Positions 57,619-64,000 of a stretch of DNA of 64,000 nt are shown here, in pieces; positions within the stretch are counted from its first letter, which is position 1, and each line of letters opens with the position of its first letter. The position numbers and the translations under genes were made by a program. Source of the stretch: Psilocybe cubensis (lineage: Eukaryota). The notes beneath the pieces were generated by a model, which was not told where the DNA came from, ran no database searches, and worked only from the letters and a program-made list of their open reading frames with translations. The stretch spans positions 2,852,001-2,916,000 of the forward strand of contig CM039002.1 in the NCBI GenBank assembly GCA_017499595.2, read 5' to 3'.

Positions 57619-60322
57619 TTATGGCAAATGAGTACTAATGTAAATATCGTGTTCGTGTCTCATCTGATTCCGATTAGCATTCTTTCTCTTTTGAGTTTCA
57701 TAGGCCACACAACAATTTTCGGTTGGCGTCAATAGCTCGCCATCCACTATTTGATCAGCTCCTCGATCAGTGGGCAGTACTTGTTTGACCACCAATACCA
57801 CGCCATTGGTATCCTTCCTAGAATGCACACGTCTGACGCATTTACCCGCGTGTTCTCCTTCAATGATGGCTAATAACCCAAAGTCGTGCTTGATGGTAGG
57901 ATGTTTGGGCTTTATATGGGTCGATTCAATCCGTAACGTCCGCTTCGAATTGGGTGTAAATCGCATCATGCACAGCTGCCCATCCACGTCCTCCTGAACG
58001 ATTACAAACAACGGAGAAACGTGTCCATCGACGGTTGCCTCTTCCACCGTCAAAGGAACTCCAATCAGCTCTCGTTTCAACAAAAGATTACAAGGAGTGG
58101 TTAAAGATGCAACGTTGGTACCGTCGCTTGAATTTACGACGACGGTTCCTATGCTAATGCTTGTTAAATCTTCTGAATGGTCAGATGGATCCCACGCAGG
58201 CGAGGTGTCCTCAATAGTATCAGGCAATGGTGTATGTCTGCCACTGTCAGCGCTTTCAGTTCCTGTGGTTATTATGATCGATGGGTTGGCGAAGTTACGA
58301 GACTGGTGGACAGCGTTCGAATCATACGTCTTCGACAGGCTTAGAGGCTCAAAGGTACTACAAGCCGTGAGCGCGAGTACAAATCGGTAAATGAAATACG
58401 CTTACCTGTATTCCAGTACGTCGTCTCTGTTCAAAACAATTTTCTTGAAGGGATTCGACGGATCATATCGAGTCGGCTCTACAACTAAACGCAACTCAGG
58501 TTGACCTGTTCTTGGGCTTACGGACTGTAGTACCTCGGCGACAATGCCGATTAAGCCTTTGAACGTATGATGTACCTTGCTCACTATCACAGTTACACCT
58601 TTCCAACGATGATATCGGGTCGTGTGTGATGTTGGGATAAGCGCGAGGAGCGATGAAGGCTGACATGTCGTCGCATCTCCCAGAGAAACGAAATTCCTGT
58701 GCATATATATAATCTGAGATGTATGCATGAGCCAGAGTATATATACGGTTAAATGACAAATACTTGCCTCCAACATCGAGTCGGCTGTATTGATTTGCTG
58801 GTCTTTTGTAGTGCCTTGCTTATCGATTAGTTGTATTTCATCTCCCTTGATGTCCACGACCCAACCCGATCGTCCAGCATTAACGCCAGCGTCAACCCCT
58901 ACGTAATCCCCTATTTCGAAATGTTTTAAGATGTCACTCCATACGGTGCGTATTGTTGTCAACAGCTGGGTCGTAGTTGTATCAACTCTGTGGATTTCAG
59001 TTTCGTTGTAATGTTGACCAGTTTCGTCATGGTCGCAGCCTTTGTTGTATATATCGACATCGACCATATTATCGTCGTCGGCTTGCGCAATGACTCCGAG
59101 CCAACCTGTAGATCTCATTACCACCCATTCCATGGTTCGCATGATCCATTCCTTTGGCTTTGGTATCGGCGCGTGATGGAGTGCGGGATGCCCACTCATA
59201 CAAAATGATGTATACGTCACGTAACTCAGACCTTCACGACATGAGGCAACGTGTCTGGGATCGTAGTCCACCCGGGCCAAACCATGCTCAAAGATCAGAT
59301 CACCTACGCGATAGACAGATGCTCTGCCTGATTCTATGTATAAATGAGAGTTACGAAGGCCTGTCGGATCGAATAGCTTAGGCGCGGGCACCGCAGTGTA
59401 TGTCTTCCGTTTACGAGATGACTTCGTTTTGGTGGACACGTACTCGTAACGGGGGATCATAAGCATTGACACCCCCCACGATCCTTTCGAAACGACAAAG
59501 CCTACATCGCCTTTGTATACACCTCGTTTAACCTTGAGCCATTTTCCGACCGATAGGTTCGTAATGTCCCCTCCCATGTACAACAGTTGCTGAGCCTCAT
59601 TCTTATCGATCGGACTCAGGAGCACGTCCGTAGTTTTTACGATGATGCCGGGCGATCTTTTGATAAGGTCAATCATAGGCTGATCCATCAAACATTCCAA
59701 GTATATGTATCCATGTACAGAACTGCGTGAAAACGCGGACCGAATATGATGTTCTCGGCGCGAGTTTTTGAGTAAAGAAGCGACCGCGATTTCTTCGTAT
59801 CCGACCTTACGTATTGTTCATCGATATGGTTGGCAACACACAAATTTAATTCGATGGTATTAAACTTACTTTACATCCAATCCTCCATGTAGGATAGTCC
59901 GTGGGCAGATTTTCGAAGCCCGAATCAGTGTTTCCGTGCGGTGACAAAACAGTAGGATTGTCAGCGTTTGAATACAATGGTTCCACACCCCGGTACATAT
60001 CAGAGGCGGGCAGTGAGTGAGATCTACCACGTGTTCTCTCTTCAATTTGTTGAATTACGAGGGCCAGTCGGTCTCTCTTTGTAACAGGAATGGGTTTGTC
60101 CATTGCCACAGATGATGAACCGTCACAATCTTCATGGGATTGAGTTCCGTCGTCGATGAAGCATTCTGCGAGTAAATTTGGTTTATCTCGTATGTTGGAA
60201 TGACATGAGACTGAGTAAAACGAAATATTATGCGCACCAAATTCGTCAGATTCGGCTGAACCATCCTCTGAATCTCCGTGATCGACATTCGCTTCTAAGT
60301 CCAAGAATGGGTTGGGAGCCAT
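57619..60322 (-). CDS. Divergent Spt5-like protein (acidic N-terminus, NGN, several KOW motifs), ~800 aa, 5 exons
   Basis: NPFLDLEANVD..acidic..FIDD; NGN WRIGCK|VGYEE...GYIYLE; KOW GKWLKVKRGVYKGDVGFV, FEIGDYVGVDAGVNAGRSGWVVDI and GVTVIV..HTFKGLIGIV; one TP...SPAWDP; final IIEGEHAGK. Confidence 0.8.
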
Positions 60323-60924
60323 AGGTAGTCTAAAAAGAAGCAGAAAAAAAATTAAAAATTTGCCGTTTATATGTATAGCATTGCGTGAGTAGATATAGAC
60401 ATACTAAAGCAACGACTCTGCAAAGCAGTCGCTGACAGGTTTAAGGTGTTCTTCAAAATGAACTATCGATTTGAACACATTTAGAATACCATCAATATTT
60501 CTATCATATATCGTAATATAACCTACAGCCTAACAAATATTGTATATTAGCCTTGAAGATACGAATACTGGTACGATGTGGCAGCAAATGACAACGTCGA
60601 AAAAGGTGTTCAAGTCGGATAGGCACAGTTCTTAAACAGAGCGGTGAACGAAATTTCGGCAAGTTCCGATATCCCTTTGATGCGAAGGTATTAAAGGAAC
60701 ATGTACGACATTCTCCCACGCTTTTGGATCGTCCTTTCAACCACACGATGCTCGATGCAATGTAGTCTATGGGTTCAGATTATACAGCTGAGTCTAATAG
60801 ACTGATACGCTGCGACACTATCGAACGATAAATACCATACTGATATGAATATAAACAGTTGTTATCTGAGCATGTATCAACTGAGGCCTCCATAACCATA
60901 AAACACTTTGGATAAATTTTCATC

Positions 60925-63900: not shown

Positions 63901-64000
63901 GTATTCAGCAGGCCTGAACATGCTGACTTCTTGACATGTAACATCGCTAGAGGCGTTAGAAAACAATCCTGCAGATTGTATGATGCCATCTACTTCTCGC
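60925..64000 (-). CDS. Helitron-type Pif1 (SF1B) helicase fused to a C-terminal USP-like cysteine protease domain; 5'-partial
   Basis: Intronless frame open to the window edge. Helicase motifs GMGGTGKS, LAPTGTAA, IDEISML, GDFAQLPPV, LKQNMRQ, FAMTDYSSQGKT and YTCVSR. C-terminal NYSCSYDS...CSKC...CPSC...GVVYGGQHHFVSR...WFHDG. Confidence 0.88.
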   Translation of the reverse strand, partial: REVDGIIQSAGLFSNASSDVTCQEVSMFRPAEYKTHTSWASLIKAEKIRLFKQKLSGYVPSDPSDDITNIHISNEESTNDVKVVSSDYLLRSYKAKQMEHNVLVDSTVADFTLNTEQERAFRIVANHASLLSPGQLRMHLGGMGGTGKSQVIKSIIHMFESRGESHRFVVLAPTGTAAALLNGSTYHSVLGIRSKSDRGQDFSKNEVAVINDVRARLKGVKYIFIDEISMLSSRDLYAISRRLSQVFNDDTLFGGISMILAGDFAQLPPVGNLPFYSPSIKHTQDARMKVSEQEATLGKIFWHQFTTVVILKQNMRQKTQTEEDAKLRTALENMRYAACTDADISFLKSRLASKLTTIEGKPILTDPAFRNVSVITAWNNQKDRFNEQGIARYAKESGRTLHHFFSVDSLGTQEGETRRPRGRPSGSSKATKQTKMSQRLQEALWGRSACSSEQVPAKLSLCVGLPVMIRHNDATELCITKGQEAVVVGWESSVGAFGRPVLDTLFVELIRPPNPVSLADLPVNVVPLTRTSSRVTCTLKSGTKINVNRQQVLVLPNFAMTDYSSQGKTRDYNLIHLDHCKDHSSYYTCVSRSSNASGTILLGRFDASKITKGISGHLRQEFRELNILDHITTMKYNGQLPDGVLHGLRNPTIRSFMLLDVSQSIGTDWHPTLAVSSSKQLIRTPEKDGTWSLNSVKAIVTDRAKDKRNKRQPIRSDCIGPRKRMLLSTPSEFAVLPVGTKWDADNYSCSYDSIFTVLYNLWISAPEMWTNRFSDLTPLLDRLSGQFALVQNGSISLESARNDVRNDMHSRSPLDFPMGPNMTYIDRVMTAVMGQRSSGMSVLVCSKCGYNDQRPVMRLGEYISVARTGVFHDDSQEVSSISDSLGFNLSDAQRLSSKNCPSCAQNQHIVYMSLCHKVERLPYIMTVDICSPRFAINPDIMFKSDSFNVEYKLTGVVYGGQHHFVSRYVDLQGDVWFHDGITTGNRCVKEGNVHDLVNDVSQWLRISVNGGNLKHALYAIYARE

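Follow-up and report, generated by a model that had tools for sequence, protein, structure and literature searches.

The 64,000-nt stretch of the Psilocybe cubensis genome analyzed here (GenBank assembly GCA_017499595.2, contig CM039002.1, positions 2,852,001 to 2,916,000 of the forward strand; the whole stretch is termed the window) carries an intact, strongly diverged paralog of the transcription elongation factor Spt5 with the Spt5 fold and domain order. The gene lies downstream of a Helitron-type helicase gene, in a segment of DNA that behaves as a single mobile, multi-copy unit, and the combination of architecture and helicase adjacency is far beyond chance expectation. We consider it probable that the gene is a transposon-borne Spt5 paralog, i.e., a member of a fast-evolving cargo family of Agaricales that is carried by several kinds of DNA transposons and would take the seat of Spt5 for the expression of these elements. 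The Spt5-like gene occupies four exons on the minus strand, its 839-aa product is open throughout in the window translation and its three introns (72, 64 and 48 nt) are all of the GT-AG type:

57619-60322, minus strand: Spt5-like gene (ATG at 60322; stop 57621-57619)
60322-60238, 60165-59870, 59805-58406 and 58357-57622, minus strand: exons of the Spt5-like gene

The exon joins SDEF/ECFIDD, WRIGCK/VGYEE and LEY/STFEP are backed by an annotated P. cubensis protein (P0290, 744 aa), which is 100% identical to the 839-aa product across their overlap and bears the public label 'Transcription elongation factor SPT5 [Psilocybe cubensis]'. The window's own copy appears in the public annotation as a partial model (KAH9480487), a 371-aa 'hypothetical protein', and other paralogs of the gene carry the public label of housekeeping SPT5. 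A conserved KOW4-like segment (58765-58488, minus strand) is spliced out or re-framed in the public models P0290, P0292 and P0002; we kept it as coding because the barrel is conserved family-wide and reaches a predicted local distance difference test score (pLDDT) of ~90 in the structural model described below.

Profile, sequence and structure comparisons all place this protein with Spt5. Full-length P0290 passes the Pfam Spt5-NGN profile (25.7 bits vs a cut-off of 22.4, residues 122-181), and exon 2 alone matches Spt5-NGN (E 2.7e-4) and KOW1_SPT5 (E 1.5e-3), both slightly below the cut-offs. Among the 17 matches listed by phmmer against PDB sequences, 14 are Spt5 or SPT5L chains (best E 1.4e-10), with alignments covering NGN-KOW1 plus a second stretch in KOW2-3; the chain 8hyj_W (RDM3), which we take to be the SPT5L/KTF1 protein, is matched at E 1.6e-5. 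An AlphaFold2 model of exon 2, made with an alignment of 91 family sequences as input, has a pLDDT of 83.9 and a predicted template modeling score (pTM) of 0.72. When this model was compared with the PDB by Foldseek, the best 28 matches were chains of RNA polymerase II (Pol II) elongation complexes (E 1.5e-16 to 5.8e-7), taken as Spt5 from the W/Z chain letters that they have in common with the phmmer Spt5 entries, followed by the isolated KOW2-3 crystal (4ytl, TMt 0.82) and KOW1-linker (4ytk, TMt 0.78). Sequence identity to canonical Spt5 in the Foldseek alignments is only 12-18%. The modules, together with the one motif reminiscent of the Spt5 C-terminal repeat region (CTR), are positioned as follows:

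59644-59887, minus strand: NGN domain, spanning intron 2 (Pfam on P0290, phmmer)
59314-59559, minus strand: KOW1 with linker (weak Pfam KOW1_SPT5; Foldseek 4ytk, TMt 0.78)
58816-59127, minus strand: KOW2-KOW3 region (second phmmer stretch, to yeast-type Spt5; Foldseek 4ytl, TMt 0.82; beta-strands of the model)
58408-58593, minus strand: KOW4-like barrel, HRWKGVTVIVSK..KGLIGIV (conserved in the family alignment; pLDDT ~90 at model residues 401-466)
58183-58206, minus strand: single CTR-like motif TSPAWDPS (window sequence; family consensus ..PAWDPS..TP)

The protein begins with an acidic stretch containing FLDLEA and FIDD, conserved in the family, for which Pfam Spt5_N gave no match on the window's exon 1 and weak matches in the relatives P0114, P0137 and P0295. 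A GYIYLE motif is present, and the Glu of ..YLE, presumably the residue with a role in Spt4 binding, is invariant in two small alignments (8/8 and 4/4) and the majority residue among the 91 sequences. There is no CTR repeat array: the window protein has one TSPAWDPS, which we take to be a CTR unit of the TPAW type, the family consensus likewise has one PAWDPS, and P0005 has two. SPT5L has an AGO-hook GW repeat region, and inspection of the window protein sequence found no GW/WG repeat region. In comparison with canonical Spt5 (the large subunit of DSIF), the acidic N-terminus, NGN, KOW1-linker, KOW2-3, KOW4-like barrel and TPAW-type motif follow in the same order, whereas the window protein is 839 aa long with one CTR-like repeat instead of an array, and its gene is multi-copy, strain-polymorphic and located in mobile DNA. 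A sequence-only reading of the window had described an intact spliced gene of Spt5 architecture, far more diverged than a housekeeping Spt5, with its C-terminal repeats reduced to one and lying some 600 bp downstream of a co-oriented Helitron-type Pif1 helicase, and all of these features are borne out by the present analyses.

The mobility of the surrounding DNA is apparent from public sequencing runs mapped to window positions 44001-64000, among them an assembly of another strain (X11) and raw reads of a third strain (X12):

51921-64000, no strand assigned: strain-polymorphic multi-copy segment, both genes plus 5.7 kb; right end past the window
51918-51965, no strand assigned: high-copy stretch of 48 bp at the segment edge (X12 reads running off: 187 and 127)

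In X11, a 38.6-kb contig and its neighbor match the window to position 51920 and then continue for at least 1.6 kb into other sequence, while depth is ~zero over 52005-64000, where just two short low-depth pieces are found. In X12, 21 reads carry the same empty junction and mean depth rises ~1.6-fold, from ~33 left of the junction to ~51 (38-61 per bin) over 52005-64000, and is roughly uniform over the helicase, the Spt5-like gene and the 5.7 kb past it. Given the absence in X11 and the junction reads and depth in X12, the DNA from 51921 to at least 64000 behaves as a single mobile multi-copy segment. Runs X8 and X9 held solely low-depth, short, identical pieces and were not interpreted. With GenBank accessions and contig records as proxies for copy count in P. 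cubensis, the identical 744-aa protein occurs on three contigs (KAH9476619, KAH9480286, KAH9480292 and KAH9481811; UniRef n = 6), in addition to KAH9480487, the window copy, and a partial model from a contig of 25 kb. A word-indexed homolog search with exon 2 gave nothing beyond the copies of the window gene.

Upstream of the Spt5-like gene lies an open frame on the same strand, its stop 602 bp ahead of the Spt5-like ATG:

60323-60924, minus strand: spacer from helicase stop to Spt5-like ATG, 602 bp, presumed promoter
60925-64000, minus strand: Helitron-type Rep/helicase gene, 3' part of 1024 codons running past the window edge (stop 60925-60927)
63028-63663, minus strand: PIF1 helicase core match (residues 113-324 of the frame; Walker A GGMGGTGKS read in translation)
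60928-61788, minus strand: C-terminal USP-like cysteine peptidase domain (roughly 290 aa; its conservation extends to the C-terminal end of relatives, PF14214 carriers among them)

The frame encodes a PIF1-type helicase (Pfam PF05970, E 6.6e-28), and at least 11 of the 120 relatives listed carry Helitron_like_N (PF14214), including P0170 and P0223. Its residue 1 aligns to residues 616-752 of eleven relatives of 1366-1775 aa, and we therefore place the Rep domain and the 5' end of the gene past base 64000; five further relatives align lower, being shorter models or having a later match start. The helicase frame ends in what is predicted to be a USP-like deubiquitinase fold. No Pfam match was obtained for this domain; across 32 sequences Cys216, Cys312 and Cys367/370 are invariant and Cys315, His430 and Asp446 nearly so (>= 90%), a CxxC pair being among the conserved positions, the model has a pLDDT of 78, and every listed Foldseek match in the PDB is a USP deubiquitinase (best E 1.4e-9). 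OTU-type proteases occur in Helitrons. As in Helitrons, the window thus combines a PIF1 frame whose relatives carry Helitron_like_N with a multi-copy, polymorphic character; unlike them, the frame has a C-terminal USP-like peptidase domain, and Rep and canonical ends are not in view. Repeat and Rfam searches of the spacer found no repeat and no RNA family.

The Spt5-like protein belongs to a large family. In a HMMER scan of 1.84 billion representative proteins, 546 proteins match at E <= 1e-3; 181 clusters remain when the threshold is tightened to 1e-10, and 45 when it is set at 1e-30. Other than the window gene itself, the best matches are 29-39% identical. The order of domains and motifs is kept family-wide, beginning with FLDxEA and closing with an RDNGLLVVIxGEHxG barrel at the C-terminus. 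Of 29 representatives that we looked up, 27 were named and all 27 were from Agaricales (three genera lineage-checked); genera with members are Psilocybe, Panaeolus, Flammula, Pholiota, Cyclocybe, Armillaria, Dendrothele, Amanita, Hymenopellis and Lentinula. The paralogs that the earlier reading proposed to look for in this genome and in other Agaricomycetes exist, and its further proposal, i.e., a check against neutral evolution, came out in favor of constraint. By the Nei-Gojobori method, the ratio of nonsynonymous to synonymous divergence (dN/dS) is below 1 in all 63 pairs listed, with values of 0.26-0.51 between subfamilies (dS 0.29-0.89), 0.22-0.37 in pairs with dS > 1.2, which are near saturation, and 0.57-0.91 among near-identical copies of one set of metagenomic loci (family A, below; dS 0.055-0.10). 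Purifying selection thus acts between Spt5-like lineages. The high ratios among near-identical copies and low ratios between subfamilies indicate selection on active lineages while inserted copies drift, a pattern expected of transposon genes.

These results bear on two explanations in which the gene is not a functional part of a transposon. One is that a fragment of host SPT5 was captured passively and has no function, as is common in Helitrons, which are well established to capture host genes; in its favor, the window's copies are identical, and selection among them cannot be judged. We regard this as highly improbable, given the full-length 839-aa frame with all domains and spliceable introns, the architecture conserved over 181 clusters and the dN/dS between subfamilies. 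The low identity to canonical Spt5 implies that any capture must be old and that the gene has been kept since. Hardly more probable is a host multigene family, e.g., a silencing-side Spt5 paralog like plant SPT5L that was duplicated along with repeat-rich regions. Many members are annotated as ordinary genes, and specialized host paralogs do exist: plant SPT5L/KTF1 (PMC3111484) and Paramecium Spt5m (PMC8934623) are reported to be Spt5 paralogs for transposon-control transcription. Those are, however, single host genes serving the host, and the GW repeats of SPT5L are absent from the window protein. Identical copies on three contigs, presence/absence polymorphism at the site, near-identical copies with dN/dS of 0.57-0.91, some of them pseudogenized, and an exact transposon terminus common to seven copies in unrelated flanks all speak against a host family.

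This terminus was found in metagenomes, where a scan of contigs gave 44 Spt5-like loci (two peptide patterns were used to find them and may bias the set). Seven loci (family A: L001, L003, L004, L008, L009, L013 and L029) share an identical end, ...GCAACACTA, located 270-300 bp past the Spt5-like stop, with unrelated sequence beyond. Five others (family B: L007, L011, L035, L040 and L021) share a 10.2-kb unit with the left end TAGTGTTGCTG... and ends that are inverted complements in 10-12 of the first 12 nt. Over 36 pairs of 40-nt flanks (family A plus two family B flanks) mean identity is 0.26. Both families have short terminal inverted repeats (TIRs): the left end reads TAGTGTTGC... and the right end its complement (10-12/12 nt), and we take their YARNG start to be typical of hAT elements. 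The family B unit contains, besides the Spt5-like gene, a second gene in divergent orientation that has a CxxC finger and fragments of which have ZBED1/hAT-like RNase-H clusters as look-alikes in the ESM Atlas (score 0.94, 185-189 shared features). Other loci place the Spt5-like gene next to other transposases: it is head-to-head with a Tnp2 (PF02992) gene in L010 and L016, where the two genes show similar divergence (dS 0.21 vs 0.34), and head-to-head with a Plavaka gene in L014 and L025. Outside the repeat units, Plavaka occurs in L008, KDZ and DDE_1 in L006, and Tnp2 in L015. At least one lineage of TIR transposons therefore carries the Spt5-like gene as cargo, and further kinds of transposons are probably associated with it as well.

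What ties the gene to the Helitron helicase is the window itself and a second species. The closest relative of the Spt5-like protein (P0001, CVT25_014756) and that of the helicase frame (P0169, CVT25_014753, 60% identical) are both from P. cyanescens and, since both are recorded on a contig of 14624 nt and their locus tags are three apart, we read them as sharing one contig. In a FastTree phylogeny (midpoint-rooted, with long branches and without a canonical Spt5 outgroup), local support is 99% for a clade uniting the window protein, P0001 and a Logan protein. The earlier reading had cast the gene as a Helitron's dedicated factor and had proposed recurrent linkage to Rep/Pif1 genes as a test. 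The mobile multi-copy segment that holds the helicase and the pair in P. cyanescens uphold a part of this, but linkage does not recur in the metagenomes: by tblastn, no helicase or Rep related to the window's was found in any of the 44 loci, 24 of which extend 1.5 kb or more upstream of the gene. Thus, exclusivity to Helitrons did not hold and 'a Helitron's own factor' is too narrow, as metagenomic members are found in hAT-like TIR transposons or beside Tnp2 and Plavaka. A weak match to the USP-like part alone lies in L029, outside the transposon end. In L008 a Helitron_like_N frame (10355-12169, minus strand; E 2.5e-40) is situated 7 kb from the Spt5-like gene and outside its transposon end; it was undetected with the window helicase family, which means that the tblastn screen misses diverged Helitrons.

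The missing helicases are one of several points that weigh against our preferred reading of a transposon-borne family. The hAT-like frame fragments gave no Pfam match, the 8-bp target duplication is unconfirmed (both ends are present in L007 only, where the right end is without its final TA and the flanks differ), and family B has decayed Spt5-like copies (16-23 stop codons). The assignment to hAT is a putative one, drawing on the TIRs, the look-alike score of 0.94 from a language model and known motifs. In L014 and L025 the Plavaka genes have a dS of 0.58 and the Spt5-like genes one of 1.5, and as the latter is far above the former, the two adjacencies may be independent. At the sole visible boundary of the window segment, 51921, a Helitron terminus (hairpin plus CTRR, A/T target) was not found: at 51920/51921 the fold z-score is -1.19 (not significant), there is a stem of 5 bp only, and the junction on the element strand is G/G. 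It is possible that the Helitron itself ends elsewhere. With no Helitron end visible and Rep past the window edge, the position of the Spt5-like gene inside the Helitron proper is likely rather than certain. Between the Spt5-like gene and this boundary, 5.7 kb of possibly host-like DNA contain no recognized domain (Pfam, frames in 52-57.4 kb). Lastly, a separate canonical SPT5 in P. cubensis is unconfirmed by the search with P0106: this protein was considered as the canonical Spt5 and rejected, since the search gave 2 matches and it is another divergent paralog. No housekeeping-like Spt5 was among the family matches listed.

Taken together with the TIR carriers, some of these points suggest that the helicase and the Spt5-like gene could be chance neighbors, i.e., that the Spt5-like gene, whether part of another transposon or all that is left of one, was inserted next to or within a Helitron and the two genes are not one functional unit. 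Elsewhere the family is in TIR transposons with a related helicase adjoining in 0/24 informative loci, no Helitron end was found at 51921, and the window segment may be composite. We hold such a coincidence to be unlikely, though it is the alternative to be taken most seriously, as the pairing recurs in P. cyanescens, where the partners are the mutually closest relatives of the two genes, the window's two genes are co-oriented and 602 bp apart, and X12 depth is roughly uniform over both. Moreover, neither a TIR of the known type nor a transposase frame was found near the window's Spt5-like gene, and a search of the window for hAT-type TIRs gave 25 matches vs 25.7 expected, i.e., chance level.

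If the gene is indeed transposon cargo, what could it do? In the window it travels with a Helitron Rep/helicase-USP gene, in mobile multi-copy DNA that spans at least 12 kb, and in other fungi it is located inside hAT-like TIR transposons or next to Tnp2 or Plavaka transposases. The protein appears to retain all that Spt5 uses to ride on Pol II (NGN, KOW1-5 and acidic N-terminus) with one CTR repeat in place of the array, and from this retention of modules alongside a reduced CTR we infer that it could take the Spt5 seat on Pol II and alter the elongation complex so as to favor element expression. This might proceed via processivity or anti-silencing on repressed copies, or via displacement of host Spt5 and its CTR-recruited partners, and in either case would act in trans, independently of the transposition enzyme. 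As the carriers use different transposition chemistries, a role in expression or host interaction is likelier than one in transposition itself. We advance this functional part, i.e., occupation of the Spt5 position on Pol II and an elongation complex that favors element transcription, as a tentative proposal with less confidence than the transposon-borne origin. More speculative again, and in our view rather doubtful, is that unrelated superfamilies of mushroom DNA transposons (Helitron, hAT-like and probably CACTA-type) have in common, and pass among themselves, a Pol II elongation factor of their own. As a eukaryotic counterpart of RfaH and ActX, it would occupy the Spt5 seat and permit transcription of the elements in the face of host silencing, and an arms race with the host would account for the speed at which it evolves.

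The nearest analogue of such a mode of action would be bacterial. RfaH and ActX are NusG/Spt5 paralogs dedicated to horizontally acquired or mobile DNA, and ActX is found on conjugative resistance plasmids (PMC7819879). The likeness lies in a specialized paralog of a universal factor possibly working for mobile DNA; the differences are that RfaH and ActX are bacterial, two-domain proteins recruited by ops DNA, whereas the window protein is a eukaryotic, multi-KOW protein carried by a transposon. With regard to its carriers, the family resembles the genes of TET/JBP dioxygenases, thought to be anti-silencing, which are reported on hAT, EnSpm, Plavaka, KDZ and Helitron elements of Agaricomycetes and other fungi (PMC12730594). 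The Spt5-like family is similarly spread over heterogeneous DNA transposons, although the cargo there is a DNA-modifying enzyme and here an elongation factor; Spt5, KOW and NGN have no occurrence in that paper, nor in another one on DNA transposons of fungi. The Spt5 CTR is reported to be linked to heterochromatin in fission yeast (PMC10659198). The earlier reading knew of no functional description of a transposon module of this kind, and we likewise found no description of an Spt5-type gene in eukaryotic transposons, in a literature search with thin full-text coverage of subscription journals and supplements excluded.

Some further observations concern the segment edge and its surroundings. 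The 48-bp stretch at 51918-51965 is high-copy in the two other strains and seems to be internal to another repeat; the X12 continuations are fairly uniform (agreement 0.77 and 0.75), and X11 has a 53-nt contig there at double depth. An X12 junction at 53910 was rejected as an element end, since divergence between alleles at this place seems to explain it. No second occurrence of the empty-site sequence was found in the window, Rfam gave no match over 50000-64000, and an ESM Atlas look-up of the frame 52514-52906 gave nothing informative. A frame of 334 codons at 50878-51882 (plus strand), rich in RD/RE (Arg/Asp/Glu dipeptide repeats) and without a Pfam match, ends just before the junction and is the repeat skipped in read mapping. 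Farther away, nested inverted repeats at 10358-10935 (120-nt arms 99%, 86-nt arms 92%) give a ~580-bp foldback, which may be a small element of the non-autonomous kind.

Other observations touch the wider family. P. cubensis has two more multi-copy families of Spt5-like paralogs (P0005/P0151-P0159 and P0006/P0160/P0162), 33-34% identical to the window's; a 938-aa paralog form is found at five or more loci on five large contigs, and a 134-aa neighbor gene (KAH9474230/KAH9476184) is duplicated together with one of the two families. In Lentinula detonsa, P0297 (1570 aa, 6068-nt contig) is an Spt5-like protein fused to ~570 residues with a Cys-rich stretch at the contig edge, which is reminiscent of the start of CACTA-type transposases; Pfam and BLAST gave no support for this likeness. 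A viral contig collection contained no relative of the Spt5-like gene or of the helicase. Upstream of the Spt5-like gene, at a distance of 1-1.7 kb, four metagenomic loci contain long nested palindromes with arms of <= 146 nt that are 88-98% complementary (L010:4201-4823, L016:1090-1845, L015:8993-9237 and L006:967-1265), in L010 and L016 between this gene and Tnp2; either the structure of a bidirectional promoter or the insertion of a foldback element could account for them.

Spt5/NusG is, to our knowledge, the sole transcription factor conserved in all life. Specialized paralogs for mobile DNA are known in bacteria (RfaH and ActX), and we found no report of one in a eukaryotic transposon. 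A transposon-carried family of at least 181 clusters would thus offer a handle on how elements manipulate Pol II elongation or co-transcriptional silencing, and supplies natural Spt5 variants with C-terminal repeats down to one. It would also correct the annotation of dozens of mushroom genes that are currently labeled as housekeeping SPT5.

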